Below, one piece after another: positions 1 to 53,789 of a stretch of DNA of 64,000 nucleotides. Both the position numbers and the translations under genes were made by a program. The DNA is from an uncultured Lachnospiraceae bacterium (lineage in GTDB: Bacteria; Bacillota; Clostridia; Christensenellales; UBA1242), in NCBI GenBank assembly GCA_964606505.1, contig CAZSGM010000001.1:18859-82858 (forward strand). Reading direction: 5' to 3'. The notes beneath the pieces were generated by a model. It had not been told where the DNA came from. It was given only the letters and a program-made list of their open reading frames with translations, and searched no databases. Numbering within the stretch: the first letter of the stretch is position 1; every line of letters begins with the position of its first letter.

Positions 1-599
1 AGTTGAGGATAGGTTGCCAAACTCACCTCATGCAAATTTCCCTCACTATCAAAAGCCCTGTCAATATGCATTTCTCCGTGCAAAAATGCCTTAAAGTCTC
101 TTTCAGTTACAACAAAATTAGCCATTTTTGACACAAGTACCTCATCGTGTTCCGACAAAGTGTGCGGAATTTCCTCAATAAACTTCTCGAATTCCAACTT
201 AAAGTCCGTAAACTTAGGGTTTGCTACAATACTCTTAAGATAGTCGACGCCTGCCAGCTTAAGTTCCTCATCAACAAAGCTACCAATTTCCAAGTAATCC
301 TGATAAACCTGCGAAACTTCGTCGTAAAGTTTTAGCGCATCGCTGTCGTTTGTGTCTAAGTCAAGTTTCAAAGCTGCATACGCCTGCAACGCATCAAATT
401 TGAGACAAATTTCATCGTCAAGTTTTTTATACTCAAGCAGTTTATCCTGATTACTTAATTGACCCTTGTAATTTTCAATTTGCTCCATCTGTTCTTCAAC
501 TTCATCAAGCGCCTCATAACACTCATCATCATTTGCGAAAAATTGCGACAAATCACATCTATATTTTTCGTCAATCTCGTCGCGCGATTTTAATACCAT
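1..599 (-). CDS. pepF: oligoendopeptidase F (M3B family), N-terminal part; gene runs off the window
   Basis: Not in the ORF track because there is no stop in the window. Minus-strand ATG at 597-599, preceded by AGGAG. Translation MVLKSRDEIDEKYRCDLSQFFANDDECYEALDEVEEQMEQIENYKGQL... resembles the PepF N-terminus as recalled. Confidence 0.7.
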   Translation of the reverse strand, partial: MVLKSRDEIDEKYRCDLSQFFANDDECYEALDEVEEQMEQIENYKGQLSNQDKLLEYKKLDDEICLKFDALQAYAALKLDLDTNDSDALKLYDEVSQVYQDYLEIGSFVDEELKLAGVDYLKSIVANPKFTDFKLEFEKFIEEIPHTLSEHDEVLVSKMANFVVTERDFKAFLHGEMHIDRAFDSEGNLHEVSLATYPQ

Positions 600-662
600 A
601 ATAACTCCTATTCCTATAAACTTTGCTGGTTGCACTCAAAAATGTTAAATATTTACACAAAA

Positions 663-1952
663 CTAAGGCAGCAATCTGTTTGGTCCACGGAAGATAAACA
701 TTGCTTCCTTAATCGTTGGAATATCCAACAATAACATTGTAATTCTGTCAAGTCCTAAACCAAAGCCGCCGTGTGGAGGGCAACCATATTTAAAGAATTC
801 AAGATAGAACTCAACGTCTTTCTTCAAGCCCTTCTCTTCTGCCTGCTCTTTCAAAATCTCGTACCTGTGCTCACGTTGTGCGCCCGTTGTGATTTCGACA
901 CCGCGCCAAATCAAGTCATAACCTTGAGGAACGCCGTCCTTTCTCATATGATAGAATGGACGCTGCTTGATGTCGTAATCTGTTACAAACATAAACTCAC
1001 TATTAAATATTTCTTGCGCGAGTTTAAACACTAACTTTTCAGCTTCAGTTGTAAGGTCTCCCTTTTCAATATCGTCGACAATGTAGTCGTATCTTTCCTC
1101 GAGCTCTTGGTAAACATCCTTAAGTTTCATTCTTGGGAACGGTGTTGTAGGGACAACGACTTCCACTCCAAACTCTTTCGCAATAACTTCGCCGTACTCT
1201 TCCTTTACGCATTTGAGCATATAGGTCAAAAGTTCCTCTTCAAGTTTCATAACATCTTCAAACGACTCAATGTAACTAAACTCTATATCAAAGCCTGTAA
1301 ACTCTGTCGCATGCCTTGATGTGTAACTTTGCTCTGCGCGAAAAACTGGGGCACACTCAAATATGCGCTCAAGCCCGCTTGCCATAGCCATTTGTTTATA
1401 AAACTGTGGACTTTGTGCGAGGTATGCCTTTTTGTCAAAATACTTAAGTTCAAAAACATCCGCACCACTCTCACTAGCCGTTGCGATTATTTTTGGCGTG
1501 TGAATTTCAACAAACTTGCGTTCAAGTAAGAAGTTTCTCAAAGCCTTTGTGCAGCAGGTTTGGATTTTGAAAATCAGCGACTTCTTTTCATCTCTTAAGT
1601 CAATCCAACGATAGTCAAGACGCATATCAATTGCGGTCGTTTCGTCAATCGGCGAAACCTCCGCCGCACTCTCAACAACTACACTTGTTGGTAAAATCTC
1701 CTTTCCGCCTGCCTTAACTGCAGGGTTTTCAACAACCTTTCCCTCGATTGTAACAACTGAGTTAACGTTCAACCCAGCAAAAATTTCAGCAATCTCAGGT
1801 TGCTCAGGTTTAACAACCGTAACTTGGATTTTTCCAGTTGTGTCTCTGACAACGATAAACTGCATAGTTTTTTGGTCGCGAATTTTATCTACGAAACCTT
1901 GAATTTTTTGCGTTTCGCCCGCTTTTGTTTCACTAATATAAGTTCTTTGCAT
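663..1952 (-). CDS. aspS: aspartate--tRNA ligase, archaeal/eukaryotic type (about 430 aa class IIb)
   Basis: 429-aa ORF. N-terminal OB fold plus class II motifs (FRAE, GGFGLGLDRITMLLL); its size and C-terminus fit type-2 AspRS rather than the 590-aa bacterial type. Confidence 0.85.
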   Translation of the reverse strand: MQRTYISETKAGETQKIQGFVDKIRDQKTMQFIVVRDTTGKIQVTVVKPEQPEIAEIFAGLNVNSVVTIEGKVVENPAVKAGGKEILPTSVVVESAAEVSPIDETTAIDMRLDYRWIDLRDEKKSLIFKIQTCCTKALRNFLLERKFVEIHTPKIIATASESGADVFELKYFDKKAYLAQSPQFYKQMAMASGLERIFECAPVFRAEQSYTSRHATEFTGFDIEFSYIESFEDVMKLEEELLTYMLKCVKEEYGEVIAKEFGVEVVVPTTPFPRMKLKDVYQELEERYDYIVDDIEKGDLTTEAEKLVFKLAQEIFNSEFMFVTDYDIKQRPFYHMRKDGVPQGYDLIWRGVEITTGAQREHRYEILKEQAEEKGLKKDVEFYLEFFKYGCPPHGGFGLGLDRITMLLLDIPTIKEAMFIFRGPNRLLP

Positions 1953-2013: not shown

Positions 2014-2058
2014 ATGTTTGCATTAATTTTGTGTTATTACATTTCGCCTATCTAACAT

Positions 2059-2090
2059 AAAACAAGGCGCAAACCTTTTGCGCCCTGTTT
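2059..2090. repeat. 32-bp direct repeat copy 1 (hairpin GGCGCAA-ACCT-TTGCGCC, terminator-like)
   Basis: AAAACAAGGCGCAAACCTTTTGCGCCCTGTTT is identical to 6866-6897. Stem-loop flanked by A/T runs. Confidence 0.9.
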
Positions 2091-2273: not shown

Positions 2274-3824
2274 TTATACTTTAATACTATCTAGGAAGTT
2301 TTTTAAATTAGTTAAATCGCTATACGACAACTGAAAGACAAAATTTTCAGCGCAATTCGCGACTTGACTTTCAAAAAAACTAGCCCGCGCTTCATTTTTG
2401 GTTATGCCCAAAATTTTAGTTGCTACTGACACAAATGCGTTTTTAATGTTTGAATTTCTATATATGAGGACGCTCTTCATTGAGTTCTTAACGCTTTCCT
2501 TTAACGTAAATCTAATTAATTTAATGTTATTCAAAGTGTATTCAGTTAAATCGTACAACTCAAGAATAACGTCAAACCTCCCCGAGTACAACTCTTTTGC
2601 TTGTTCGCCAGTAAATACCCCATATTGCACATCTTTATTTGCCATTATCAGCGTTCTTAAATTCAACACATCTTTTAGTTGATATGTAAAATCTATTACA
2701 TAAACGCAATCTTGCGAGTGGCTGAGGGTTTTATTTTCTTTTTGCTTAAGGTAGTTAGATACTGACATTGAGTTGCCATCTTTTTCTTGTTTGTTAAGTA
2801 TAAATAATAAATTATTCTCATTCACTGCATCGTTTTTACATATATGCGACGCTATATCATTAAAATTAACGGCAACTTGGCTGCTGGCCTCTAATGACTT
2901 TTTGCCATGCGTATAAATGTCATACTCCTCGCTATATTCCAGTTTATCAAACGCTTTAGGTAAAATGTTGCAAACATAAAGGTCGCTTCTATAGCCTAGC
3001 GCTTCCGCTTTTTTATAGACATTAAAGTTTGCTATTATTTCCTTAAAGTATACAGAAAGTTTTTGCATAGCGCGTTGCACCTTGTAACCAATCGCGGGAG
3101 AAAGTTCAGCAGACTTATAACACAAGTATATTGTCGCAAATTTATCTTTGGAACATTCAATTGCGCGCAATAAAAATAACGACATCCCAACAGGCGTATA
3201 TGGAGGGTCAGTAAATACAACATCAAAACTTCTTTGAGCAGAAAGTGGACATCCCAACCTAAAATCACTATACAAAACCTTAATATTTAACTTGAAATCG
3301 CGTGCTGCTTGCGCAATAAAATTTAAGACGTCATCATCTATATCTAAAACTTCAATTTTATAATCATTAAACCCCACCTTACTCAACGTATACGCTAAAG
3401 CGATACTTGAAAAATCGTGGTCTCCTAAAAATAAAATTTTGCAGTTTGCAACATCGTGATTGTCAATAATATACTTCGCTCTCTTTACCAATGTTTCTGG
3501 AACCGCAGACACGTGGTCTAAATTCATTTTATGTTTGTCGAATTTAGAAACAATTTTTTCTATTTCCCCGCAAATACTCTCAAAATCAATCTCCTTGCCA
3601 CTAGCAAAATCACTTTGCAATAAATAGTCATCCCTAAACATGTAATGCTCGCCGGAAATTTCGCAATAATCATCCAAAACATCTTTTATAAACTTATATC
3701 CAACCCCCAATTCAAAGCAAAGCGAATGAATATTGTTGTGCTTTTTTGCCTCAGTCAAAATATTGATGGCAACCTTACTTAAACTGCCAAACTTTTCATA
3801 ACATTTTTCTCTTACATTTTCCAT
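2274..3824 (-). CDS. BpsA/DUF43-like Rossmann-fold transferase with an uncharacterised ~210-aa C-terminal extension
   Basis: The ORF-track start is TTG at 3842; ATG at 3824 has GAGG 6 nt upstream. Motifs ILFLGDHDFSSIALA, FDVVFTDPPYT and FNVYKKAEALGYRSD parallel the GDDDLTS / TDPPYT / FN.Y..AE motifs of the DUF43 branched-chain polyamine synthase family as recalled. Confidence 0.55.
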   Translation of the reverse strand: MENVREKCYEKFGSLSKVAINILTEAKKHNNIHSLCFELGVGYKFIKDVLDDYCEISGEHYMFRDDYLLQSDFASGKEIDFESICGEIEKIVSKFDKHKMNLDHVSAVPETLVKRAKYIIDNHDVANCKILFLGDHDFSSIALAYTLSKVGFNDYKIEVLDIDDDVLNFIAQAARDFKLNIKVLYSDFRLGCPLSAQRSFDVVFTDPPYTPVGMSLFLLRAIECSKDKFATIYLCYKSAELSPAIGYKVQRAMQKLSVYFKEIIANFNVYKKAEALGYRSDLYVCNILPKAFDKLEYSEEYDIYTHGKKSLEASSQVAVNFNDIASHICKNDAVNENNLLFILNKQEKDGNSMSVSNYLKQKENKTLSHSQDCVYVIDFTYQLKDVLNLRTLIMANKDVQYGVFTGEQAKELYSGRFDVILELYDLTEYTLNNIKLIRFTLKESVKNSMKSVLIYRNSNIKNAFVSVATKILGITKNEARASFFESQVANCAENFVFQLSYSDLTNLKNFLDSIKV

Positions 3825-3851: not shown

Positions 3852-3881
3852 ATCAAGGATTGCAAAACTGCAATCCTTGAT
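3852..3881 (-). terminator. perfect 13-bp-stem hairpin between the precursor gene and the downstream transferase (attenuator or transcript stabiliser)
   Basis: ATCAAGGATTGCA-AAAC-TGCAATCCTTGAT. The weak T tract on the minus strand suggests partial read-through. Confidence 0.55.
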
Positions 3882-3895: not shown

Positions 3896-4012
3896 TTAGT
3901 TATTGTCTTCTCCTTTCTCGCCATATTCAGCTGAACCATTACGCTCGCCGTCTTGCGGTTTAGATTTTTTACTCATAGTAATTATTTCGATTTTTCCTAT
4001 TTTTTTAATCAT
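3896..4012 (-). CDS. candidate lasso-peptide precursor (38 aa)
   Basis: Below the ORF-track size cutoff. GAGGAGG lies 8 nt upstream of the ATG. Peptide MIKKIGKIEIITM/SKKSKPQDGERNGSAEYGEKGEDNN has Thr at -2, Ser1 and Asp8. It sits directly downstream of the B1 gene. Confidence 0.55.
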   Translation of the reverse strand: MIKKIGKIEIITMSKKSKPQDGERNGSAEYGEKGEDNN

Positions 4013-4059
4013 ATTGTGTTCCTCCTCTTTAGAAAGTATATCACCTGAAAAATAATATG

Positions 4060-4287
4060 TCAAGCGCTTTTAGTAAATATATCACATTCATAAAGTTCTT
4101 CTAATAACTCAATATCTTGATTTTGAGCATTAAAACAAACCTCTCTGCCTTTTGATTTTATCAAAGTAAATATTGGCAAATATTCATCCCCCAACAAATA
4201 AAATTCCCCAGAGTTGAAATCTAATATTACAACATTTTTATCTATAATAACAAAGCTAATATTTGTTGCAATACAAAAATTATACAT
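4060..4287 (-). CDS. PqqD-like RiPP recognition element (lasso B1)
   Basis: 75 aa. FVIIDKNVVILDFNSGEFYLLGDEY fits the PqqD beta-strand pattern. The start overlaps the cyclase stop (ATGTATAA). Confidence 0.65.
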   Translation of the reverse strand: MYNFCIATNISFVIIDKNVVILDFNSGEFYLLGDEYLPIFTLIKSKGREVCFNAQNQDIELLEELYECDIFTKSA

Positions 4288-6214
4288 TAATCACCTCAAC
4301 TTCCGACCTATCTTGCACCTTACTATGTATTTTACACTGTTCCAACATCCATTCTCGCCCCAAATGAATTTCCTTAAGCCATATTTCCAAATAAATCAAA
4401 TTATACATATATTTCATTGCTAAATTAGGCACAAAATGAGGATCAAAAATATTTAACAAAAACACTTCTAATTCGCGCAAAAACTCATCTCTTTTTACGA
4501 TCCCATATTTTGCCAAAAATAGTTCTTTATCGTCCCCCATAAGTTCAGCAAGATTTTTGCTCTCTTTTTTAAATTTTAAAACTATTGAAGGTGCATAATT
4601 TGTTTTGAACTTTTGTTCTGTTATTATATCTGGCAAAATATCTTTGTATGCTTCTCGCAAAACTCTTTTTTGTACATAATATGACCCAACATCACCCTTG
4701 CTTATGTCATAATGTATGTATGGCGGTATTTGTTGAGCTAAAGTATAAATTGATATATCTAACAATGGATGCACAAATTCATATCCATCATTTCGCTCAT
4801 CATCAACAATCCCCTTAGGAAACATGAAATCATAAGCAAATCTTCTAGCCCAAAACTTCAACACTTTACTGTCTCTATAATTATTCCCCTTTTGACTTTT
4901 ATTCGTTTTTTGCATTTCTTTCGTAAAAAATGACGGATACCCTACTTTGTCATCTTCTTTCCAATAATTTTTTCTATAATAGTAGTTATTCAAAAATGGA
5001 ATAAATTGAGCATATTTGTATAAATAATTATCCTTCTTTTGCTGTTTCATTATAGTTTTATGTGCCATAGCCTCTGAACGATTTCCACAATATTTAAACA
5101 CATCTTGACAATACCTAGTGCCCATAAATAGGTAATCTCCGCCATCCCCACCAAACAATAAAGAAACATTGTCCTTTTCTAATTCAGCAGATAAATGATA
5201 CGAGAAACTATCATTTCCTATACAACAAGGTCCGTTAATATTTTTAATATAATCACGCCCCATGACTGCATTGCATATAGAATTGCCACTATTTTGATAC
5301 AAAATTTTGCATTTTACTCCAAGTTTTTTTACTAACTTGCGCACTATTTCAGAATCATTACAACTAAAATATAAAGGATTATTAGATGTTGCATGATAAC
5401 ATATCACCCTGTCTTTATATCCCAAATCAATTAAAGATGCAAGTATAACTGCGGAATCAATGCCCCCACTTAATGAAACGCCTATTGAACCATCACCATA
5501 TGAAAGTACGAACTGATTAACAACACGGTTTAAAGTATCCCGAAACTTTTTATAGTATTGCTCCTTATCCGAAAAATTTAAGAATTCTCCATTGTAAAAA
5601 ATTGCATTGTCATATATGCTTTTATATTGAATATTCCCTTCTTTAATCTTACATTTTACACCATTGGGGATTTTTTTTATTCCACTAAAGTAAGTTTGAG
5701 TATCAAAATTTTCATTATTAACAAATAATTCAGTGTTGGTTAACTTGCACTTGTCAACATTTACTTTAATTGCAACCTCATCGCATAGTAACAATAATCT
5801 TATATCATTTGAAAAGAAAATGCCATCTCCGTTTGTATAATAAAAAAATGCATTAAACCCGTAATAATCATTAAAAATAGTAATTGAATTATCTTTGCTC
5901 GCCATTAACACCGTGTATCTTCCACTGCAACCACCCGTTTCTAATATATGCTCAATATTTTCAATATGATCAATACTATCATTGTTATAAAATTGTTCAT
6001 TATAAAAAACGCACCCATCAACACACATTTGCACCGTACAAATGCTTGCCGTTGATTTTTTTATATTTATATTCATCAAAAAAAACGAACTTTCACATCT
6101 ATTCAACTCTGACATGTCTTCAACAGAAAAATTTAGCCATGCTTTAACTTTTTTAAGCCAATCATTTTCAATTTTGTTTTTATTACGCCCCATATATCCA
6201 AAATAAAGTTCCAT
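4280..6214 (-). CDS. asparagine-synthetase-like lasso peptide cyclase (C protein)
   Basis: PP-loop VSLSGGIDSAV. No N-terminal glutaminase Cys2. The preferred start is the ATG overlapping the B2 stop (TAATG), with GGAG upstream. Confidence 0.8.
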   Translation of the reverse strand: MELYFGYMGRNKNKIENDWLKKVKAWLNFSVEDMSELNRCESSFFLMNINIKKSTASICTVQMCVDGCVFYNEQFYNNDSIDHIENIEHILETGGCSGRYTVLMASKDNSITIFNDYYGFNAFFYYTNGDGIFFSNDIRLLLLCDEVAIKVNVDKCKLTNTELFVNNENFDTQTYFSGIKKIPNGVKCKIKEGNIQYKSIYDNAIFYNGEFLNFSDKEQYYKKFRDTLNRVVNQFVLSYGDGSIGVSLSGGIDSAVILASLIDLGYKDRVICYHATSNNPLYFSCNDSEIVRKLVKKLGVKCKILYQNSGNSICNAVMGRDYIKNINGPCCIGNDSFSYHLSAELEKDNVSLLFGGDGGDYLFMGTRYCQDVFKYCGNRSEAMAHKTIMKQQKKDNYLYKYAQFIPFLNNYYYRKNYWKEDDKVGYPSFFTKEMQKTNKSQKGNNYRDSKVLKFWARRFAYDFMFPKGIVDDERNDGYEFVHPLLDISIYTLAQQIPPYIHYDISKGDVGSYYVQKRVLREAYKDILPDIITEQKFKTNYAPSIVLKFKKESKNLAELMGDDKELFLAKYGIVKRDEFLRELEVFLLNIFDPHFVPNLAMKYMYNLIYLEIWLKEIHLGREWMLEQCKIHSKVQDRSEVEVINV

Positions 6215-6705
6215 TATATATTCTCCAAACAAAATTTTTTAATAATATGATATTCTTTGTAATCAGTAAAATAATTTAATATTTGTTTATCTCCTACTTC
6301 TAACCAAGAATGAGATAGCACCTTTCCGTTTTCAATTTTAACCCCAACGATAATTTGAGAATCCTTATTGGAAAATATACATAACAAATGCGCCAACAAC
6401 GTTATACTTATACAACTTGAAACAATATTATTATGTAAATCTTGCTGCTGGATATATTTTAATATTTTTTTTATTTTCTTAATAGATAATCTACACAAAA
6501 ACTTATATTTATCAACTTTTTTACATAAGTTTAGAGATAGCGATTTAATTGTTTCTATGTATCCCATATTATAGATGGATGCTCTAATTATTTGGTGCAA
6601 CAAAACGCACTGCATTAAACTTGTTTTTATGTATTTCATAAGATCAATTCTAGCATTTCTTTTGCTGTTTGTCAAGTATTTGCCTGCTTTAAGGGTTTTT
6701 AACAA
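6214..6705 (-). CDS. transglutaminase-like cysteine protease (lasso B2); start uncertain (TTG in the track)
   Basis: SSCISITLLAHLL ... SHSWLEVGDKQIL matches the Cys ... HAWVE pattern of lasso leader peptidases. Confidence 0.7.
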   Translation of the reverse strand: MLKTLKAGKYLTNSKRNARIDLMKYIKTSLMQCVLLHQIIRASIYNMGYIETIKSLSLNLCKKVDKYKFLCRLSIKKIKKILKYIQQQDLHNNIVSSCISITLLAHLLCIFSNKDSQIIVGVKIENGKVLSHSWLEVGDKQILNYFTDYKEYHIIKKFCLENI

Positions 6706-6865
6706 GGCATTTCCACAGCATAAACTAACATTCTCAATGCAACCTTATAAAAAACATTTTCGATATAAATGGCTTTTTGAGTTTTGCTATTTATATTGCC
6801 ATAGTACTATGTTTACTAAAGCACTTTTGTTTCTCGATTTAAGCGACCATTGTACTTATAAAAAC

Positions 6866-6897
6866 AAAACAAGGCGCAAACCTTTTGCGCCCTGTTT
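6866..6897. repeat. 32-bp direct repeat copy 2 (terminator-like hairpin downstream of the MMPL gene)
   Basis: Identical to 2059-2090. Confidence 0.9.
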
Positions 6898-7026: not shown

Positions 7027-10000
7027 TTATTTTTTATCTTTTGTTTTGCTTGCAGTCTTGCTATTTGCGGATTTCTTTGAGGTCGTTTTGCTTTCCGCTT
7101 TAGAAGCCGACGTTTCGCTTTCCGCTTTGGTGGTGGCTGCTTTACTGTTTGTCCTTGCGGCGACTTTCTTAGTTTCTGCTTTTGCGGATGTTTTTACAGC
7201 TCCGCCTTTGCTTGTGGAAGTTTTTACGGGTTTTACGTCCGCGGTTTTATCTGTTCCCTTTTTGGTTTCAGCTTCGACTTCCACTTTGTCAGTTTTATTT
7301 GTTTTCTCTTCTGCAGTAGGCGTGCTGTCGCCCACGAGTGCGATAGCGTCGCCGCTTTCAAGTTGTGCAACTTCACTGCTTGCTACAGTTGGCGCACTCA
7401 CGAGTGGCACAAACTTAGCCTTTAAGGTTGTTTTCTCAATAAGTTTATCGAAAATCAACAAACATTGCGGCAATACAAACAGGATTGTCAACACTGACAA
7501 CAATGCACCGCGTCCAATTAAGTTTCCGATTGACCTAAGCAATGGGATTGTCGAAACCCAACTAATTGTAAACGCTGCAAGAACAAGGATTGTTCCACTT
7601 GTGATGATTGTAGTGAACGAGTTCCCAATCGCGGTTTTGATTGCCTCAAACTTGTTTTGCTTGCGGCGGGCAGTGAGATACCTATCGGTAAGCAAGATTG
7701 CGTAATCGATAGTTGCGCCCATTTGAATTGCCATTGCAAGCAAGTAGCAAATGAAGTAAACGCTGTCGCCCATTATGCTTGAAAGCCCGAGGTTAATCCA
7801 AATCGCGCCTTGAATTGCAAGTACCAAAATAACTGGAATACTTGCCGACCTAAATGTCAACAACACGATAAGGAAGATTAGCAAAATTGTTATGAGGTCA
7901 GTCTTTAACTTATCCGTACTAAACACTTCCATTGTACTTATAACATTCTCAGAGTTGCTAACAATATATGCACTTTCAAAATTCTCATTCAAATAATCTT
8001 GCAAGTCTCTGATAAAATCAAGTGCTTTTTCGTCTGCAACATCCAAATTCATATTGAAGAGCATTCTGTCGCAGTTTTCGCTAACGAGCATTTGTTCTGC
8101 GCTTGAAAGTGTAGCGTAGTAACCGTCAATTGTCGCCTGCTTAAATACCCCAATTTGTGTGCGGATTTCTTGGTTATTGTGCGCGTATTCCACAAACTGC
8201 AAGTTGTAAATTGTGCTGCTTGCGCTGCTAGCGTCTTGCCCATAGTAGGTAAACATTGCGCCAACTTGCGCCTGCGTTAAGCCATACTCACTGCAAATTG
8301 CTTGCGCTGTCAACTTACTAAACGCAGCCGTATTGTATGCGTCTGAAATTACTTCAACTTGGCTTCTACCCTCAACATCGTTTTCATAAATGTACGCCAA
8401 AATCTTGTAGTTTTGGACAGTGTCAGTATCTTGCAATGTATCGACACCTAAAATTGCCTTAAAGACGTTATTCATTGCGTCTTGGCTTGATAGCGCGTAG
8501 GTAGCCTGCGCTTGCGCCGCTGTCAATGCCACATACAAGTTGTTTGCGGCAATCTGCGCATAGAGGTTGTTGACTGTGGCTTCCGCCGCTGCAGGTAAAA
8601 CCGTTCTCTCCAAGTGGAGTGCGGTTACCACATCGGCAAGGTAAACGCTGTCCGTTGCAGGGTTTTTACCAAGCAAAGTAAACAGTCTATCAATTTTTGT
8701 AACAACTTCCGTATCCGCTTCGGTTACGCCGAACATAACCATAATTTGCGCTTTTGTCATCGTTTGCGCATAGAAGTCAGTTGTTGCAAGCGCGGTGCTT
8801 GAGTTTATGTAGTTTTGCTCAAACTTATCGGCGTCCGCGAAGTAATTGTTGATATATTCAACAAGCGCCCTTTCAGCCGCAACACCTGCGTCTCTATCGT
8901 CGTTTTTGCCGACCATAACTACTAGCGCATTTTGTTTGCCAAATGTTTCCTCAATCTTCGCTTGGTCAGTCGCTACAACCCCTGCACTTGAGCCGCTTTC
9001 AACGACGTAAGTGAAGTTGACGTTGCTTTCAAAATATAGACCGACGGCAACAATGCACAAAAACAGAATTGGCATAACAAAGCGCGTCTTTTTAGCAAAA
9101 GTTCCAATCTTATCCATTTTTGGCATAAAGCTGCGATGACGAGTTTTTTCAATTCCTTTCGCAAGCATCATAATTACGCTTGGCATAAAGAACAGAACCG
9201 CCAAAACGCCTATGAACACACCCTTCGCCAAAACCATACCGATATCGAACCCGATTGTGAAGTCCATAAACATCAACGCGACAAGCCCCGCGATAACCGT
9301 CAATGAACTTGCGACAATCGCAAGGAACGACCCCGCGAGTGCTTTAGTCATCGCTGTTTTTGCGTCAACACCCTTCTCCATTTCCTCACGGTATCTGTGG
9401 CAAAGCACGATACAGTAGTCCATAACAAGTGCAATCAACATAATCGAACTTATCGACTGTGTAACGCACGAAATCTCGCCCATCACAAGGTTTGTACCCA
9501 TATTGATGACAATTGAGCAGCCGATAACAATCAGGTAAACAAGCGGCTCGAGCCACGAACGCGACGTTAGGAACAAAACCAAAATTACAATCGCAACCGC
9601 AATCAACAGGATAATCATCAACTCCGAGCCAATCGCCTCTTGACTGCCCACGGTTTCAACCGCCGAACCGCCGAGCGCAAAGTCGTACCCGTCGAGGAAC
9701 GCCTTTAAGCTGTCTATCGACTCCTTAGTTTCGGGACTGTAATCGCTCTTTTCAAAGAAAACGCTCAAAAGTGCCTTGTTGTCTTTGTAGCACGCTTCTT
9801 TTTCTGCGTCAAATGAAATGCTTGCAACACCTGTAACGTCATCACTAGCCAAAATATCTTTAACCAGTTGAGTCGCGCCCTCTTTAGTTATGTTTTCAAC
9901 CATAATGCAGGCGGTTCCGCTTGCCCCAAATTCGTCCTCCATAACCTCAAGCGCAACTTTTGTACTTGAGTCGTTAGGAAGATACTTGGTAAAGTCGTAG

Positions 10001-10110
10001 TTTATTCCAACGTGCGGAATCATAAAAACACTAGCAACCACCAACGCCATAAATAGCCCAAATAGGTAATATCTGAATTTTACAACAAATTCTGCTATCT
10101 TCTTAAACAT
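7027..10110 (-). CDS. MMPL/RND-superfamily membrane transporter with a Lys/Thr/Ser/Ala-rich C-terminal tail
   Basis: 1027 aa with two multi-TM bundles separated by large soluble regions. N-terminus ..FRYYLFGLF..DFTKYLP is typical of Firmicute MMPL proteins. The last ~100 aa are low-complexity and basic. Confidence 0.75.
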   Translation of the reverse strand: MFKKIAEFVVKFRYYLFGLFMALVVASVFMIPHVGINYDFTKYLPNDSSTKVALEVMEDEFGASGTACIMVENITKEGATQLVKDILASDDVTGVASISFDAEKEACYKDNKALLSVFFEKSDYSPETKESIDSLKAFLDGYDFALGGSAVETVGSQEAIGSELMIILLIAVAIVILVLFLTSRSWLEPLVYLIVIGCSIVINMGTNLVMGEISCVTQSISSIMLIALVMDYCIVLCHRYREEMEKGVDAKTAMTKALAGSFLAIVASSLTVIAGLVALMFMDFTIGFDIGMVLAKGVFIGVLAVLFFMPSVIMMLAKGIEKTRHRSFMPKMDKIGTFAKKTRFVMPILFLCIVAVGLYFESNVNFTYVVESGSSAGVVATDQAKIEETFGKQNALVVMVGKNDDRDAGVAAERALVEYINNYFADADKFEQNYINSSTALATTDFYAQTMTKAQIMVMFGVTEADTEVVTKIDRLFTLLGKNPATDSVYLADVVTALHLERTVLPAAAEATVNNLYAQIAANNLYVALTAAQAQATYALSSQDAMNNVFKAILGVDTLQDTDTVQNYKILAYIYENDVEGRSQVEVISDAYNTAAFSKLTAQAICSEYGLTQAQVGAMFTYYGQDASSASSTIYNLQFVEYAHNNQEIRTQIGVFKQATIDGYYATLSSAEQMLVSENCDRMLFNMNLDVADEKALDFIRDLQDYLNENFESAYIVSNSENVISTMEVFSTDKLKTDLITILLIFLIVLLTFRSASIPVILVLAIQGAIWINLGLSSIMGDSVYFICYLLAMAIQMGATIDYAILLTDRYLTARRKQNKFEAIKTAIGNSFTTIITSGTILVLAAFTISWVSTIPLLRSIGNLIGRGALLSVLTILFVLPQCLLIFDKLIEKTTLKAKFVPLVSAPTVASSEVAQLESGDAIALVGDSTPTAEEKTNKTDKVEVEAETKKGTDKTADVKPVKTSTSKGGAVKTSAKAETKKVAARTNSKAATTKAESETSASKAESKTTSKKSANSKTASKTKDKK

Positions 10111-18775: not shown

Positions 18776-18946
18776 TTCCATCCTCCTTACTATAGTATAC
18801 AAAAAACTCTATGCCTTGAGTGCATAGAGTATCATTGCGCAAAAACCCTGCGTTGTGCGCTTAATTTACCTACACATCTCCTCGGCAAGCTTGCTAGGCA
18901 ATTTGCGGGTAACCCCACTTGCTGTCTATGGCGATAGTTTCTTGTA
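18776..18946 (-). ncRNA. probable rplJ (L10) leader, an autoregulatory 5' UTR
   Basis: ~170-nt structured UTR between a near-consensus promoter and the rplJ SD (for example the hairpin CTCTATGCACTCAAGGCATAGAG). Family assignment rests on position only. Confidence 0.4.
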
Positions 18947-18952
18947 GGTAAT

Positions 18953-34516: not shown

Positions 34517-35635
34517 TTAGTTAATTATGCGCACAGGAAGGATGAGGAAAAGATACCCGTCCCCTTCAAATGGCTTAATAATGCACGGAGCGATTGGAGT
34601 TGTAAAATTAAGTGTTATAAACTCGTCGTTTACCACCTTCAAGCACTCGATAAAATAGCGTGAGTTAAACGCCGTTGTCAAATCAACGCCATCCAAAGAA
34701 ATTGTAACATTTTCGTGGATGTTTCCAATTTCACTGTTCGACGAAATAGCCAAAGTTTTGTCCTTAATTTCAAACTTTGCTATGTTGTTTCTTTCGACGC
34801 GCGCAAGCAAACTTGTTCTGTCGAGCGCCTCTTCAAGTTGTTTTTTGTTTACGGTCGTAACCGTAGTAAAATCACCAGACGTAATGAGGTTATTATAATT
34901 AATAAACTCCCCGTCTAGCAAGCGAGAAATGATGACCGCGCCCTCTTGCTCAATCATCACGTATTGCTTTTGGAAAAATACTTTTATGCTCTCGTCTTTG
35001 TCGTCGATAACCTTGGTTATTTCAGACAAACTCTTAGCAGGAACGACAAACTGCGCCTCGCTAGTTGTGTACAAAATTGGCTTTTTAGCTATACTCATCC
35101 TGTACCCATCGAGTGCGACAACATTGACCTTATCGCTAAAAACTTCAAAGAAGCACCCCTTGAATAGTGGCCTTGCGTCGTCAAGCGAAACGGAAAAAAT
35201 CGTCTTGTTAATAGCGTCCACAAAGTCGTCTTTGCTAATCTCAAAGTACTGCTCGTTTGAAATCTTTTGTATATCAGGAAACTCCTCAGCATTCAAGCAT
35301 TGCATATAACCCACACTGTCAGTATATGCAAGCTTCAACTGATTGTTTTCACTAACTTCCAAAACAATTTGCTCGTTTGTAAGTTTTCTAACATACTCAC
35401 TAAAGAACTTACCGGGAACAACAACCGTTCCTTCAAGTTTTACGTCAGCCTTAATCTTTGTCTCAATCATCAACTCAAGATCTGTTGCGCTCAACTTCAA
35501 GCAATCAGCCTCAGCAACCAACTTAATTCCTTCCAAAATCGGATTAGTTGTTCTAGTTGCAGTTGCTTTGATAACCTTCAAAACTGCATCAGCGAGGTCA
35601 AGCCCATCGCATATTACTTTCATTCGGGTATTCAT
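34517..35635 (-). CDS. dnaN: DNA polymerase III beta sliding clamp
   Basis: Start set to ATG (MNTRMKVICDG), 5 nt after AGGAG. Three-domain clamp length (372 aa) with C-terminus LFLILPVRI. Confidence 0.9.
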   Translation of the reverse strand: MNTRMKVICDGLDLADAVLKVIKATATRTTNPILEGIKLVAEADCLKLSATDLELMIETKIKADVKLEGTVVVPGKFFSEYVRKLTNEQIVLEVSENNQLKLAYTDSVGYMQCLNAEEFPDIQKISNEQYFEISKDDFVDAINKTIFSVSLDDARPLFKGCFFEVFSDKVNVVALDGYRMSIAKKPILYTTSEAQFVVPAKSLSEITKVIDDKDESIKVFFQKQYVMIEQEGAVIISRLLDGEFINYNNLITSGDFTTVTTVNKKQLEEALDRTSLLARVERNNIAKFEIKDKTLAISSNSEIGNIHENVTISLDGVDLTTAFNSRYFIECLKVVNDEFITLNFTTPIAPCIIKPFEGDGYLFLILPVRIIN

Positions 35636-35795
35636 AGTTTCTCCTAAAAAATTCAAATCATTTTAGCATACTTTCGTTTTTCTGTAAAGCATTTTTGCCC
35701 AACTTTTCAAAATTTCTTCATTTTTTTTGGCGCTACAGGAGTTGAATTTTTTATTTTTTTTAAATAATAACCTGTATTATTATTGTCTGTGCAAA

Positions 35796-35956
35796 TGTGG
35801 ATAAATTTTGACGTAACCACAATATATTGTGTCATAACTCCTTAAAATCAACCACAGTATACAATATATAGTTTTTCAAAATGTGCATATCTCGGTGGAG
35901 AATTCCACATTTTTTGCACATTTAACTAACATTTTCAATTTTTCGGGTGTGGATAA
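35796..35956. promoter_or_regulatory. two perfect DnaA boxes (oriC part 2, dnaN-proximal)
   Basis: TGTGGATAA at 35796-35804 and 35948-35956. Confidence 0.75.
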
Positions 35957-35988
35957 CCCGATTTTGAACCGCGTTTTTTGGAAAAATA

Positions 35989-36002
35989 GTTAAGTACTTT
36001 AC
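35989..36002. promoter_or_regulatory. 13/14 variant of the palindrome (GTTAAGTACTTTAC), copy b
   Basis: Same 5' flank as copy a (GTTTTTTGG..AAAAATAGTTAAGTACT). A DnaA box lies 33 bp upstream. Confidence 0.5.
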
Positions 36003-36059
36003 GAAATTTGGCGAAAAATATTTTTTTTTGACTTTTTCAAAAAAATCAATTAAATTTGG

Positions 36060-36087
36060 TTGACTTATTTTTGAAAATCGCTATAAT
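36060..36087 (+). promoter_or_regulatory. orphan SigA-like promoter firing into the AT-rich array
   Basis: TTGACT (36060-36065), a 16-nt spacer, TATAAT (36082-36087). No ORF downstream. Confidence 0.4.
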
Positions 36088-36120
36088 ATAAAATTTTATT
36101 ATTTTTAGTTAATTTAGTTT

Positions 36121-36149
36121 TTAGAATTTAAAAAAATTTTAAATTCTAA
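36121..36149. repeat. 13-bp-arm perfect inverted repeat
   Basis: TTAGAATTTAAAA-AAA-TTTTAAATTCTAA. Confidence 0.85.
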
Positions 36150-36239
36150 ATTCGCGGAAGTTCGGCTCTTCAAAATAAACGGAACCTAAAATTGTAGCGT
36201 CTTTTAGTTGAACTCATCGCCAGTTGCGCAAGTTTTTTT

Positions 36240-37115
36240 GTGTGTTATTTAAGTACTAATAATATGTTAAGCTTGTTTATTTAATTGTTACTCATAATTT
36301 AGTAAGTAATTTTATTTTATTTCAGCACTTACTTATAATCATTACTTAAATACTATTAATACAATCTTTACTTAATTATAATATATAATATTGCAAATAA
36401 TAAGTCAAGTAATTTTATATTATTAATTAATAATTATTTATTGTCTAAATTATTTTGGTTATACTAATATAATATTAAGTACTTTTATTAATGTTATACT
36501 TATTTTATTATAAGTACTAACTTAATACACTTACTTATTTTTTTATTCGTACTAATTATAAGGGGTTGCATAATGCAGCGTGCTATCGCTTTTTATACTC
36601 ATACAATATAGTGAGTAATTATACTTATATTTTTTACTTATAATATTATAAGTTAATATTAATTTTTATATTTAAAATAATATGCATATATAGTACTATT
36701 ATATTATTACTAATACTATATTAAGTATTAATATGTTTTGTTTACTTTAATAATAGATATTACTAAAAATATTAAAGTACTTATAAAATGTTAAGTATTT
36801 TATATATTATTTTGTTATTATATAATTATATAACGTATATATATTAATACTTATTATATTATAAAAACTATATTATTTATTATACTCATAATATAATAAG
36901 TACTTAATTATTATACTACTTATAATATTATATAAACTAACATATTACTGTATTTATAATATTATAAGTTTAGATATATAATTATATCTTTACTTAATAT
37001 AAGTACTAAAATAGATAAGTACTTACAATATTATAAGTACTTATTTTATTTAAGTACTAAAATAATATAACGTATTTAAATATATATTTATTCTTATTAT
37101 ATTATTAGTACTAAA
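36240..37115. repeat. AT-rich AGTACT-core iteron array, block 1
   Basis: AGTACT starts at 36252, 36478, 36513, 36692, 36776, 36899, 37002, 37018, 37036, 37053 and 37107, mostly within (A/T)TAAGTACT(A/T)A. Confidence 0.8.
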
Positions 37116-37494
37116 ATAAGACAATGGGCAAACAAAATGCCGACTAAATTTTGCCTGATACAGTTTTATTTGGTTCATATGCTTATTTTGTGTCTACTGC
37201 ACCATACCCATTTGCAACGGCGCACACGATGTCGTGGCAGATTATACCATACTCCATTGCGGTTATGCAATTATTTTCTGCGTTGCAATCAATTGCTGCA
37301 TTGTAACCAATCAACATACTACAACTAATCGGCGTACCGCAACCAATTATGGCAGCACAACTGATAGCCGAACTGACAACTAAACCGACAGATGAACTAA
37401 CAGTGAACCGACAGCTAAGTTACAATCAACTCCATGTTGTTGTTAGCAATCAAACTTAAATTAACTATTATGCGACAATTAACTATTCCGCGAT

Positions 37495-38200
37495 ACTTAA
37501 TTAAAATTTACATGCAACTTATTTTATAAGTAATAATAAGTTATTAGGTACAAATATTATTTAAGTACTTAACATATTATTTGTATTAGCTAATAGTAAT
37601 AGTTAAAAATATTATATGTACTTATTATATATGAGTAAATAAAATATTGTAATACAAATATAATGTGTTAACATAAATTATTTTGAGTATTAAATTAATA
37701 TTAGTACTTAAAATATTATTAAAAATAAAATAATATGTATAAGTCTATTATATTATCATAAAATTATTGGAGTACTAATAATAAAGTAAGTACTATTATT
37801 AAGTATAATAAATATTATTAGTACTAAAAAATTTATGTACTAACAATTTAATAAGTACTAAATTATGTAAATACTGATAAATTAATAAGTACTTAAATTA
37901 TATAAGTAAAAAAATGTAAAACGTACGAATTATACATAAGTACAAAAAATATATAACGTAATAATATTATATGATTACGAATAATATAGAATGAACTAGT
38001 ATAAATAAGTACTAATAACTTAATAAGTACTAAAATATTGTAGTACTAATAATAAAATAAGTACTACAACTAAATAGGTACTAGAAATATATTGATATAA
38101 TAATATATTGTACGTAAAAATGTTGTTCGTACTAGAAATTATAACACTAAAAATAGTTTAAGTACGTATAAATTAAATTAGTAATAAAATTATAAGTGCC
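37495..38200. repeat. AT-rich AGTACT-core iteron array, block 2
   Basis: AGTACT starts at 37564, 37703, 37771, 37789, 37820, 37854, 37888, 38008, 38026, 38042 and 38060. The site at 37560-37573, TTTAAGTACTTAAC, matches the palindrome at 13/14 positions. Confidence 0.8.
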
Positions 38201-38435
38201 AATGTAAAAACAAAAGATGCGTAATTATATAATTTATTTTGAGTAGAAACAACAAGACAAGAACTGCATAAAAATTAATTGCGTACCATATGAAATTAAA
38301 TCACAAATGAAAGTTTAATACTCATCAAATAAATTTTAGACAATTAAGTAAAAAAAATATAGCATCACTAAAAACACACTATTTCAAATACAAAAATAAA
38401 AAGCAAAAAATCCATAATTCATTACAATTCTAGAC

Positions 38436-38464
38436 TTGACTAATTTGTGGATAAGTGGTATAAT
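38436..38464 (+). promoter_or_regulatory. dnaA promoter with a perfect DnaA box in the spacer
   Basis: TTGACT (38436-38441), a 17-nt spacer containing TGTGGATAA (38446-38454), then TATAAT (38459-38464). The dnaA ATG is 7 nt after the -10. Confidence 0.7.
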
Positions 38465-38470
38465 CAAGCT

Positions 38471-39829
38471 ATGGATAATAAGATTTTGAAAGGTTGGGAA
38501 AACGTCCTAACACGAATGGCTACAAACATTTCAGCCGTCAGTTTTGATTTATGGTTAAAACCGCTTGAGGTAATCGACTTAAAAGACAACGCAATCATTC
38601 TATCAGCACCAAGTGTTGTTACAAAAAGTCAAATTTTAAAAAATTTTAAGGAAGAACTTTTGAACGCAATTTCTGCAGAGTTTGAGAATGTTATGGGTTT
38701 TGAGCTGTTTACACCTGAAGAGAAGGAAGAGTACTTAAAATACAATAAACCGTTTGAAGAGGAAATACAGCAATCGACTGCGCCTAACTCGCTCGACAAC
38801 TTCAACCCAAAGTACACGTTTGATAACTTCGTCGTCGGCAAAAGTAACCAGTTTGTTTACACGGCGTGCAGGGCGGTTGCGGAAAACCCCGCAATGCGTT
38901 TTAACCCGCTGTTCATTTACGGGGGCGTTGGACTTGGAAAGACCCACTTGTTGCACGCGATAGGTAATTACATAAAAAACAACCTAAAAGACAAAAAAAT
39001 CGTCTACGTAACTTGTGAAAACTTTATCAACGACTATGTTTATGCGCTCAAATTCAACTCATCAAACGATACAATCATAACAAACTTTAGAGAGAAATAC
39101 CGCAACGTTGACGTTCTAATGGTTGACGACATACAGTTCATTTCTGAGAAAAAAGCGTTGCAAGAGGAATTTTTCCACACATTTAACGACCTTTACCAAA
39201 AAAACAAGCAAATTATCATTAGCTCAGACCGACCACCGCGCGAAATTTCAGCACTTGAGGATAGATTGAAATCGAGGTTTGGAAGCGGACTTATTCAAGA
39301 TATACAAAAACCTGACCTTGAAACCCGAATTGCTATCTTGGAGAAAAAGGCAACAATTGAAAATTACAACATCGAAAAAGACGCGATTAAGTTTATCGCA
39401 GAAAGAGTTGACTCAAACATTCGTGAAATGGAAGGGTTCCTATCAAAAGTTATTTTCTTTAGTTCGCTTCTAGGTAAAGATGTGGCAACAGTTGATGACG
39501 CTCAAGAAGCACTTAAAAATTACATTGAAACAAACAAAGAATCATTAAGCACTGACAGGATTATTCACGTCGTTTGTGATTACTTCAATGTTACAAAAGA
39601 CGACCTAATTGGCAAAAAGAAAACAAAAGAAATTGTAACCGCTCGCCAAATTTGTGTTTATCTCATAACAGAAATGATGGATTTACCATTGACGGCAATT
39701 GGTGAAATTTTCGGCGGAAGAGACCATACAACAATAATTCATTCACGCGATAAAATCGAAGAAATGGTTAGAAATAAGACAAACGTAAATGTTGCGGTTA
39801 ACGACCTTAAAGCAATGCTTGAAAACTAA
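38471..39829 (+). CDS. dnaA: chromosomal replication initiator protein DnaA
   Basis: Walker A GGVGLGKTHLLHAIG, sensor motifs, and C-terminal HTH ..GRDHTTIIHSRDKI. The ATG at 38471 is preferred over the track GTG at 38447, which lies inside the promoter. Confidence 0.92.
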   Translation: MDNKILKGWENVLTRMATNISAVSFDLWLKPLEVIDLKDNAIILSAPSVVTKSQILKNFKEELLNAISAEFENVMGFELFTPEEKEEYLKYNKPFEEEIQQSTAPNSLDNFNPKYTFDNFVVGKSNQFVYTACRAVAENPAMRFNPLFIYGGVGLGKTHLLHAIGNYIKNNLKDKKIVYVTCENFINDYVYALKFNSSNDTIITNFREKYRNVDVLMVDDIQFISEKKALQEEFFHTFNDLYQKNKQIIISSDRPPREISALEDRLKSRFGSGLIQDIQKPDLETRIAILEKKATIENYNIEKDAIKFIAERVDSNIREMEGFLSKVIFFSSLLGKDVATVDDAQEALKNYIETNKESLSTDRIIHVVCDYFNVTKDDLIGKKKTKEIVTARQICVYLITEMMDLPLTAIGEIFGGRDHTTIIHSRDKIEEMVRNKTNVNVAVNDLKAMLEN

Positions 39830-39909
39830 TGTGTAGACAAAATCCAAATTACACAAAAAAATATTACATCACTTAAAAATGGTAAAAATCTTAAAAAAAC
39901 ACTAAAAAG

Positions 39910-40225: not shown

Positions 40226-40231
40226 TTATTC

Positions 40232-53779: not shown

Positions 53780-53789
53780 TTTTTTTTAT

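Follow-up and report, generated by a model that had tools for sequence, protein, structure and literature searches.

Lariocidin- and triculamin-like lasso peptides are recently recognised antibiotics that target the ribosome. The accessory enzyme encoded in the triculamin, lariocidin and gelatinamin clusters is an acetyltransferase of the GNAT family (TriT, LrcE and GelT), and acetylation of lysine is the only mechanism of self-resistance that has been described for these peptides. Acetylation by TriT inactivates triculamin and gelatinamin, most likely on one of the ring lysines K2, K3 or K5, and triT is needed for production (PMC12070363). In this work, we analysed a 64,000-nucleotide stretch of the genome of an uncultured Lachnospiraceae bacterium (contig CAZSGM010000001.1; the whole stretch is referred to as the window), in which a lasso peptide cluster related to those of triculamin and lariocidin carries the gene for a 516-amino-acid enzyme resembling the polyamine synthase BpsA of the DUF43 family.

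In triculamin-like peptides, the sequence PGDG is nearly invariant around the ring-forming Asp8, and the ring contains Lys2, Lys3 and Lys5 (PMC12070363). Lariocidin binds helices h31, h32 and h34 of 16S rRNA, where the resistance mutations also map; its Pro6 and Gly7 approach the A-site tRNA, and its contacts are mainly with the sugar-phosphate backbone. BpsA is N4-bis(aminopropyl)spermidine synthase (EC 2.5.1.128), represented here by the structures of Tk-BpsA (5xnc) and Tth-BpsA (6j27) and by the Pfam family PF01861 (DUF43). In BpsA, the residues Asp159 and Asp160 of a GDDD motif are essential and position the aminopropyl group of decarboxylated S-adenosylmethionine (decarboxy-SAM), a flexible C-terminal cluster of acidic residues carries this group in a ping-pong mechanism, and Asp225, Glu259 and Tyr290 activate the acceptor (PMC12979288).

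Here, we describe the enzyme gene, the domains and motifs of its product, its membership of a mobile lasso cassette and its repeated linkage with the same subfamily of lasso peptides. Clusters of this type are known already; what is new is the family of the accessory enzyme, together with its architecture and its recruitment on several occasions. [quoted passage not shown] We consider it probable, on balance, that the branch of DUF43 marked by the motifs GDHD and DPPY represents a new way to live with ribosome-targeting lasso peptides, recruited independently at least three times in place of the acetyltransferase. It would provide either the first case of a threaded lasso that is N-alkylated (with a methyl, aminopropyl or aminocarboxypropyl group), for immunity or maturation, or a new ribosome-modifying resistance enzyme that joins a polyamine-synthase fold to a relic KsgA/Erm-like domain and occurs as a stand-alone gene in gut Clostridia.

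A second, unrelated enzyme family in the same place of the cluster would mean a new post-translational modification of lasso peptides or a new resistance determinant. In the latter case, it would be relevant to the clinical development of this class of antibiotics, with stand-alone copies already present in gut Clostridia. The association also provides an initial clue to function for a large branch of DUF43 that is uncharacterised and is now annotated, probably wrongly, as bis-aminopropyl spermidine synthase, and with Kribbella antibiotica JCM 13523 a cultured strain is available for work on the question.

The DUF43 enzyme and its relation to BpsA

The enzyme gene lies on the minus strand at window positions 2274..3824 and encodes 516 amino acids plus a stop codon; it starts with ATG, with GAGG 5' of the start, and in the program-made list of open reading frames (ORFs) it runs further, to a TTG at 3842. 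The first-pass annotation had compared the first ~310 residues with the DUF43 family, quoting three motifs, and this likeness is confirmed. The protein carries LFLGDHDFSSIALA, FTDPPYT and ANFNVYKKAE; the Pfam model BpsA_C (PF01861, formerly DUF43) matches residues 97-280 with an E value of 2.3e-32 and 112.6 bits (cut-off 27); and a sequence search of the PDB retrieves structures of the BpsA type at E values of about 1e-14, namely BpsA itself (5xnc, 5.9e-15, residues 78-289) and 2qm3 (1e-14, residues 70-295). These matches are well above chance. Among public proteins, one is identical to the enzyme and another is 64% identical and of equal length. A search of 5.8 billion proteins yielded ~25 full-length relatives with 27-64% identity, as well as hundreds more that were at first matched over the N-terminal and catalytic part only. 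The relatives bear the NCBI name 'bis-aminopropyl spermidine synthase family protein'. By its sequence, the enzyme is assigned to the DUF43 superfamily outside BpsA proper, within an uncharacterised bacterial branch of DUF43 that would be defined by the motifs GDHD and DPPYT.

An AlphaFold2 model of the whole protein, with a mean predicted local distance difference test (pLDDT) of 86.8 and a predicted template modelling score of 0.87, points to three domains: an N-terminal helix-turn-helix-like domain, a Rossmann-type catalytic domain with the BpsA fold and a degenerate methyltransferase-like C-terminal half. In a Foldseek search, the model retrieved 2qm3 and BpsA structures (5xnc) at the top of the list (E 1e-16), followed by methyltransferases of the DPPY/NPPF type, such as METTL5, and by two-domain phosphoethanolamine methyltransferases; RsmD, PrmC and METTL5 were weak matches across the sequence, profile and structure searches. 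The N-terminal domain (residues ~1-70; 3615..3824, minus strand), delimited by the secondary structure of the model, is common to BpsA and 2qm3, and the Foldseek alignments with 2qm3 and 5xnc, which extend over 330-355 columns, include it; a role akin to that of a RiPP recognition element was set aside for this domain, since it is inherited from BpsA/2qm3. The catalytic domain (residues ~71-295; 2940..3614, minus strand) was delimited by the Pfam, PDB and Foldseek alignments and by a motif census of 122 relatives. It contains the GDHD motif, G134-D135-H136-D137 (3414-3425, minus strand), aligned to GDDD of BpsA, and the DPPY motif, residues 206-209 (3198-3209, minus strand), aligned to DPPE of BpsA; GDHD was found in 112 of the 122 relatives and DPPYT in 117.

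Comparison with BpsA reveals both a shared framework and a changed active site. The small N-terminal domain and the Rossmann catalytic fold are common to the two proteins, the positions of the motifs line up, and both have an acidic surface; in the enzyme family, the catalytic domain is net acidic in 24 of 24 relatives, with isoelectric points of 5.7-8.4 for the whole proteins and 6.0 for the window protein. The acceptor-activating residues Asp225, Glu259 and Tyr290 of BpsA correspond to Asp206, Glu240 and Tyr270 of the enzyme, all of them invariant or nearly so in the 24 relatives; Asp206 and Tyr270 align exactly, and Glu240 is one position off in the phmmer alignment. The essential Asp159, however, is replaced by an invariant His136, which turns GDDD into GDHD and leaves only Asp137 of the two aspartates that hold the aminopropyl group, and DPPE reads DPPY. 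The acidic carrier tail is also absent: the alignment with BpsA stops near residue 295, where a structured domain of ~210 residues follows, so that the enzyme has 516 residues as against ~350 in BpsA. Between the two parts lies a flexible linker with the motif IYTHG (residues 303-307; 2904..2918, minus strand) followed by Glu312, the only invariant glutamate in the linker. IYTHG is invariant in the 24 relatives, and the pLDDT falls below 50 at residues 306-314; in the model, this linker would probably act as a lid of the active site. Since GDHD replaces GDDD and no acidic carrier cluster is present, aminopropylation, one of the reactions suggested in the first-pass annotation, is not the default expectation. 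Another part of that suggestion, an Asp or Glu side chain or the C-terminus as acceptor, also finds no support: DPPY agrees with motif IV of the amino-methyltransferases, (D/N)-P-P-(Y/F/W) after strand 4 of the class I fold, which predicts attack on a nitrogen acceptor. BpsA and the present family differ in their setting too, the former belonging to the polyamine metabolism of thermophiles and the latter occurring in mesophilic Clostridia and Actinomycetota within antibiotic gene clusters.

The C-terminal domain (residues 296-516; 2277..2939, minus strand) is modelled as an alpha/beta subdomain and a helical subdomain and contains the motifs (R/K)SxxKNxF and TKN(E/Q)AR. Searches by sequence gave no Pfam or PDB match for the last ~210 residues, and profile searches of both databases returned only noise; phmmer with this domain against 1.8 billion representative proteins found six matches, all from its own family. 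When the C-terminal half was modelled separately (pLDDT 88.2), the nine top Foldseek matches were all KsgA/Dim1/Erm proteins (DIMT1, ErmC', KsgA and ErmAM; E 4.7e-5 to 1.4e-2), with alignments that span the Rossmann-like and the helical subdomains but with template modelling (TM) scores of only 0.2-0.39 and root-mean-square deviations of 11-14 Å. The alignment with Escherichia coli KsgA by hhalign was not significant (E 0.13); it places RSxxKNxF on RRKTIRNSL, at the start of the C-terminal domain of KsgA, so that a basic (R/K)xxKN motif stands where KsgA has RRKxxxN. The half shares no significant sequence similarity with KsgA/Dim1/Erm, it lacks both a conserved motif for SAM binding and the catalytic N(I/L)PY motif, and its only invariant residues are Asn462 and Asn477. 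We take the predicted resemblance to a degenerate rRNA-methyltransferase module as real but weakly supported, and the C-terminal half would be at most a non-catalytic relic, with the active site in the BpsA-like domain. A module for recognition of the peptide, as the first-pass annotation had supposed for this domain, is not obvious in a predicted fold that comes nearest to KsgA/Dim1/Erm. The three-domain architecture is family-wide, since an actinobacterial homologue of 570 residues aligns with the Clostridia family by hhalign from end to end (E 1e-48), including IYTHG...E, KNxF and TKN(E/Q)AR; IYTHG is present in the enzymes of loci L005 and L178, described below.

The lasso cassette and the distribution of enzyme relatives

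In the window, the enzyme gene is the last of five genes, B2-C-B1-precursor-enzyme, that form a mobile, AT-rich cassette of 4.8 kb for a triculamin/lariocidin-like lasso peptide. The leader peptidase B2 (6214..6705, minus strand; probable start ATG 6639, giving 141 residues as in locus L081) is transglutaminase-like, with a match to PF13471 at E 1.8e-7 (31.5 bits, cut-off 26) and a match to NF033537, lasso_biosyn_B2, at E 6.8e-6 and 26.5 bits, which is under the curated cut-off of 33. The asparagine-synthase-like lasso cyclase C (4280..6232, minus strand; probable start 6214) matches PF00733 (E 4.8e-21) and the lasso cyclase model NF033535 (E 1e-12, under its curated cut-off). A 75-residue ORF (4060..4287, minus strand) has no Pfam or NCBIfam match; its size, position and conservation suggest B1, the RiPP recognition element. 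Loci L081, L086 and L091 share all three genes: B2 is conserved, the cyclases are 36-66% identical to C of the window, and the small ORF is kept between C and the precursor or enzyme gene.

The precursor gene (3896..4012, minus strand) encodes 38 residues, MIKKIGKIEIITM|SKKSKPQDGERNGSAEYGEKGEDNN, with a leader of 13 residues and the canonical features of a lasso precursor: a Thr at position -2, one of Gly, Ser, Ala or Cys at the start of the core (here Ser1) and an Asp or Glu at position 7-9 (here Asp8), Ser1 and Asp8 being predicted to close the ring. A promoter-like site, TTGACA-17-TATACT with TG (4035..4063, minus strand), matches the consensus at 11 of 12 positions, by consensus comparison only, and lies directly upstream of it. 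The precursor gene ends 71 nucleotides upstream of the enzyme gene, and between the two is a 13-bp hairpin (3852..3881, minus strand; -22.8 kcal/mol, z -3.3) whose stability was reached by none of 200 shuffled sequences; the gene order given in the first-pass annotation, with the enzyme downstream of precursor and hairpin, was therefore right. This hairpin is possibly an attenuator that sets the ratio of precursor to enzyme.

Two copies of a 37-nucleotide direct repeat mark the edges of the cassette. The left copy (6861..6897), a terminator-like G+C hairpin, lies downstream of a gene for an MMPL-family transporter, and the right copy (2054..2090) lies between the enzyme gene and the promoter of the gene for aspartyl-tRNA synthetase (AspRS). 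The copies are 95% identical, 4807 nucleotides apart, and bracket exactly the five genes from B2 through the enzyme; the cassette has a G+C content (GC) of 30-34% and its flanks of 40-45%. In loci L095 and L096, whose AspRS are 96% and 94% identical to that of the window, the MMPL gene is directly beside the AspRS gene and no cassette is present; just past its right repeat, the window can be aligned with the spacer that separates MMPL and AspRS in L096. In locus L081 (AspRS 96% identical), a cassette occupies the same site, with genes merely 51-70% identical to those of the window. Thus, the cassette-free loci, the repeat edges and L081 indicate that the enzyme gene is gained and lost jointly with the lasso genes, and the linkage of the enzyme to the lasso cluster, as first annotated, is that of a dedicated part of the cluster. 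The AspRS gene was considered as an immunity copy of the microcin C type and ruled out, because cassette-free relatives have the same AspRS beside MMPL; it is a housekeeping gene. The MMPL-family transporter (7027-10110, minus strand), which adjoins the cassette, ends in a long low-complexity tail rich in Lys, Thr, Ser and Ala. Its identity between the window and L081 is no more than 69%, although that of the AspRS across the cassette reaches 96%.

The core of the window precursor starts with SKKSKPQDG. Against the NCBIfam models for lariocidin and triculamin cores, the precursor scores E 0.007-0.03, all under the cut-offs (NF050021, 16.3 bits, cut-off 40; NF050022, 14.6 bits, cut-off 27; NF050031, 14.6 bits, cut-off 65). 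Five orthologous precursors were found in loci L081, L091, L094 and L086; where the motif is PGDG, the window has PQDG, and L086 has PGDG and PADG. A ring pattern of five residues followed by P-x-D-G (xxxxxPxDG) is common to all cores associated with the enzyme. All six Clostridia cores have Lys2 and Lys3 without exception, and so do the Kribbella cores described below, but the L178 core has neither. The tails of the associated cores range from polycationic in Kribbella to approximately neutral in the window, where the tail, GERNGSAEYGEKGEDNN, has a net charge of about zero as read from the sequence, unlike the strongly cationic cores of the triculamin type. Precursor genes are multiplied in some loci: four triculamin-like precursors stand in tandem in L334 (~350-830, minus strand), from a genome of 31% GC.

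Had the relatives of the enzyme never been found beside RiPP genes, a polyamine gene adjacent by chance would have been the natural conclusion; instead, four more Clostridia loci and five actinobacterial or metagenomic loci of the triculamin type link the two. Among the Clostridia, a full lasso gene set adjoins the genes for P0002 (64% identity to the enzyme) and P0009 (37%), P0003 (47%) has a lasso cluster in which B2 is cut by the end of the contig, and a precursor gene stands at the contig end beside P0007 (41%). The genomic surroundings of P0002, P0003 and P0009 are three different ones. In every Clostridia cassette, the enzyme gene is co-directional with the others and last, and in L086 its start overlaps the stop codon of B1. 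The cluster of L086 (8078-15945), the most divergent of the Clostridia clusters with lasso and enzyme genes, lies beside genes for DNA methylases, a Vsr endonuclease and a serine recombinase and is probably on an integrated mobile element.

The actinobacterial and metagenomic loci were revealed by a ring-pattern search of all fetched loci, which found leaderless triculamin-type precursors with a follower. In L005, from a metagenome-assembled genome (MAG) of Actinomycetota, and in L175, a soil metagenome contig, a precursor MSKKSKPGDGSQAKGKKGALLYEP... lies beside a truncated asparagine-synthase-like cyclase, and both are divergent from the gene for a 570-residue enzyme homologue. Kribbella antibiotica JCM 13523 and Kribbella sp. 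NPDC051620 have the same arrangement with three precursor genes, all leaderless in each locus (in L224 at 6838 and 7378 on the plus strand and at 9065 on the minus strand). On contig L178, the enzyme gene, a precursor gene (M|ATSDVPGDGTHGGGRRDG...) and a gene for a truncated cyclase follow one another on one strand. A scan of JGI metagenomes with the enzyme profile yielded only distant relatives, alike in the N-terminal and catalytic part, two of which (L175 and L178) are lasso-linked; a tblastn search of a plasmid collection and the PADLOC defence models gave no useful match.

The enzyme gene also occurs alone, in MAGs (P0004-P0006). For P0005 and P0006 (45-46% identity; loci L001 and L002), no lasso gene was present in the 0.5-1.4 kb upstream or 0.5-9 kb downstream that could be read, and a scan of 185,579 species genomes gave no further cyclase of this lasso clade, with none in two MAGs that have stand-alone enzyme genes. 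Upstream of the stand-alone genes lies repeated, apparently non-coding DNA (L082, 1-1448; L001, 1-600; L002, 1-520), within which the contigs of several MAGs break; a distant lasso cluster beyond it is possible. In a neighbour-joining tree, the lasso-linked and stand-alone enzymes form one clade with 100% bootstrap support, and the stand-alone enzymes are sister to the lasso-linked P0003 (100%). In a second tree, the Clostridia clade, the Kribbella type and L178 branch at three different points, interspersed with relatives that lack a lasso link, which implies at least three independent recruitments to one lasso subfamily. These recruitments span two architectures, canonical B1/B2/C and non-canonical A/C.

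Further relatives lie in other contexts. P0012 and P0025 (32-34% identity) are accompanied by ABC transporters and an NTP_transf_5 gene. P0017 (33%) is encoded within a non-ribosomal peptide synthetase (NRPS) cluster (L087, 1-19593) that includes an Orn/Arg decarboxylase, an aminotransferase, a carrier protein, a phosphopantetheinyl transferase, a radical SAM/SPASM protein, a carbamoyltransferase and a glycosyltransferase, and may make another amine-rich antibiotic with the same enzyme family. Directly after the gene for P0019 (35%) comes that for an ABC-F type ATPase (L092, 7442-9010), a family that includes ribosome-protection resistance proteins. In 56 of 78 actinobacterial loci, the gene for the enzyme relative is divergently paired with an OpuA-type ABC importer, and other relatives stand beside pnp or unrelated genes. 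The neighbourhood with the OpuA-type (betaine/choline) importer is conserved (L089 and L090, 5269-10671), including malic enzyme and whiB; the pairing hints at a small-amine substrate for the actinobacterial subfamily.

Genes for GNAT acetyltransferases are largely missing from the loci with the DUF43 enzyme. None was found in the cassette of the window, in the flanks of L081, L086 and L091, in L175 and L178 or in the ten ORFs scanned in Kribbella antibiotica; the sole exception among the DUF43-bearing loci is L005, with a 151-residue GNAT 5.7 kb from the precursor. Conversely, the matches listed in a genome-wide search for the pattern KKxKPGDG, most of which are due to chance, included at least five loci that are truly triculamin-like and do not carry the enzyme (L246, L318, L319, L329 and L334). 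In these five loci, four of 28 ORFs are GNATs; they come from at least three of the loci, one of the four being without a locus assignment.

Proposed function and competing explanations

We tentatively propose, with slightly less than even confidence, that the enzyme is a SAM-family N-alkyltransferase, probably a methyltransferase, that acts on the finished lasso peptide mainly for self-protection. In this scheme, B1 would bind the 13-residue leader, B2 would cleave after Thr-Met, and C would close the Ser1-Asp8 ring around the tail. The enzyme would then take S-adenosylmethionine or a close derivative into its Rossmann pocket, and a nitrogen nucleophile of the finished lasso would be presented to DPPY, the prime candidates being the epsilon-amines of the invariant Lys2 and Lys3. 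With the assistance of Asp206, Glu240 and Tyr270, shared with BpsA, and of the invariant IYTHG...E loop, an alkyl group would be transferred, methyl being likelier than aminopropyl or aminocarboxypropyl; recognition of the leader would not be needed. The enzyme would stand in for the GNAT (TriT, LrcE or GelT) by blocking the amines of the peptide within the producer, whose own ribosomes would be spared, and it may in addition give the exported product its final form.

Several lines of evidence favour alkylation of a peptide nitrogen: the amine pocket, the acidic catalytic domain, the link with transport of small amines, the precedent of immunity through lysine amines and the backbone contacts of lariocidin. 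An amine acceptor fits in that the closest structures are those of BpsA, which alkylates aliphatic amines, the acceptor residues are kept, and a cationic substrate would go well with a catalytic domain that is acidic. The occurrence of stand-alone copies nested within the lasso-linked clade is a pattern typical of immunity genes, and immunity of either kind, through the peptide or through the ribosome, accounts better than pure maturation for these copies, for the lack of a GNAT and for cassettes reduced to a precursor, a cyclase (with or without B1/B2) and the enzyme. The simple tailoring enzyme of the first-pass annotation is therefore kept only in part, as the context (triculamin-like cores, no GNAT, nested stand-alone copies) favours self-protection over, or besides, tailoring. 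The parallel with TriT, LrcE and GelT extends to the setting: one accessory enzyme is encoded next to the precursor and the cyclase, whether B1 and B2 are present or not, and the rings are of the xKKxKPxDG type. For these acetyltransferases, a lysine amine of the finished lasso has been demonstrated as the acceptor, and the same acceptor is proposed for the enzyme; fold and cofactor are unrelated (acetyl-CoA versus a proposed SAM-type donor), and acetylation removes a positive charge that alkylation would keep. Known lasso methyltransferases, namely the LihM-type aspartimide-forming O-methyltransferases and the lassomycin-type C-terminal carboxyl methyltransferases, are likewise SAM-dependent accessories of their clusters, and some of them act on the threaded product only; they belong to other families and O-methylate carboxylates, whereas DPPY would predict attack by nitrogen. 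Among the RiPP-type pathways cited in the literature consulted, only that of microcin C attaches an aminopropyl group derived from SAM or decarboxy-SAM (MccD/MccE; the decarboxy-SAM route in Bacillus subtilis), but the enzymes are unrelated, and the acceptor is the phosphoramidate of a peptidyl-nucleotide, with no lasso peptide involved.

Other observations weigh against N-alkylation of the peptide as the function of the enzyme. The KsgA/Erm-like fold of the C-terminal half and the N-terminal fold of a type that binds nucleic acids, both predicted by the model, would not be explained by a peptide substrate. The putative core of L178, ATSDVPGDGTHGGGRRDG..., is without lysine, which means that alkylation of lysine is not universal. 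The core of the window is roughly neutral and not polycationic like triculamin; that it is toxic to the ribosome, so that immunity would be needed, is an assumption. Some relatives lie in an NRPS cluster, beside an ABC-F ATPase, beside pnp and, most often, beside an OpuA-type importer, varied neighbours that show the family not to be specific to lasso peptides. Finally, the loci compared for GNAT and DUF43 genes are few, and in some of them the cluster does not lie at the centre; even so, the two kinds of gene are distributed in a complementary way.

In the main rival reading, the target is protected: the enzyme would methylate the ribosome of the producer at or near the site of the peptide (h31, h32 or h34 of 16S rRNA, a nearby ribosomal protein or tRNA), in the manner of Erm or aminoglycoside-resistance enzymes, and leave the peptide unmodified. 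We regard this as unlikely, though far from negligible. The nine best structural matches of the C-terminal half, which include the helical RNA-binding subdomain of KsgA/Dim1/Erm, and the placement of RSxxKNxF on the KsgA motif speak for it, but the former come with TM scores of 0.2-0.39 and no sequence support, and the profile alignment behind the latter is non-significant. DPPY is the motif of amino-methyltransferases that act on nucleic acids as well as proteins, consistent with the weak matches to RsmD, PrmC and METTL5, the helix-turn-helix-like N-terminus would suit a nucleic acid substrate, and an aspartate that positions the aminopropyl group in BpsA has become an invariant histidine; yet the enzyme keeps those residues by which BpsA activates an aliphatic amine, and the catalytic domain is acidic in all 24 relatives, with isoelectric points unlike those of most rRNA methyltransferases. 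The pairing of an active with a degenerate methyltransferase domain is also known from RsmC, which makes m2G1207 in h34, and from RlmG, the latter being among the Foldseek matches of the enzyme model, but to our knowledge no member of the BpsA/DUF43 family acts on RNA. Binding and resistance mutations of lariocidin both locate to the helices in question; contacts mainly with the sugar-phosphate backbone imply, however, that methylation of a base may protect little. That the PxDG ring is the only constant feature of the peptides, with no constant residue to modify and no lysine in L178, and that copies stand alone, in an NRPS cluster or next to ABC-F and pnp genes would suit an RNA-modifying enzyme for resistance or housekeeping, whereas the betaine/choline-type importer beside most actinobacterial relatives points to small-amine chemistry.

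Pure maturation, the reading of the first-pass annotation, would have the enzyme modify the exported product for its activity, for example by aminopropylation or aminocarboxypropylation of lysine to add charge, with no role in immunity. Membership of the BpsA family by Pfam and by structure, the retention of Asp137, one of the two aspartates that hold the amine of the decarboxy-SAM aminopropyl group, and the precedent of RiPP aminopropylation in microcin C are in line with it, as are the co-directional, last position of the gene in every Clostridia cassette and the overlap of its start with the B1 stop in L086. Added amines could also restore affinity for RNA to the core of the window, which is not polycationic, but the already polycationic Kribbella cores carry the enzyme as well. 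With GDHD in 112 of 122 relatives and no acidic carrier tail, with nested stand-alone copies that have no peptide to mature, and with no explanation of why the cassettes apparently lack a GNAT or another gene for immunity, we consider this reading quite improbable. The possibility that the gene is an ordinary one of polyamine or small-amine metabolism beside a lasso cluster by chance agrees with the NCBI name of the relatives and with the fact that most actinobacterial relatives are not beside lasso genes. It is practically excluded by the cassette edges that enclose the gene, by the cassette-free sites in close relatives and by the position of the gene beside those of one lasso subfamily, which recurs across at least three independent lineages with two biosynthetic architectures. 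N-alkylation of the finished lasso, mainly for self-protection, remains the reading that we favour.

Other features of the window

The window also includes the region of the chromosomal origin (34517-43574), in which a spacer of ~2.8 kb with ~20% GC lies between the divergent genes dnaN (34517-35656, minus strand) and dnaA (38447-39829, plus strand); mnmE and mnmG follow, and the sign of the GC skew changes there. Collagen triple-helix repeats (Pfam E 3e-56) are present in a 603-residue protein encoded at 59630-61441 (plus strand), in a region of ~50% GC. At 18791-18949 (minus strand), Rfam identified a leader of the ribosomal protein L10 type (55 bits), and three tRNA genes form a run at 53703-53960 (plus strand).

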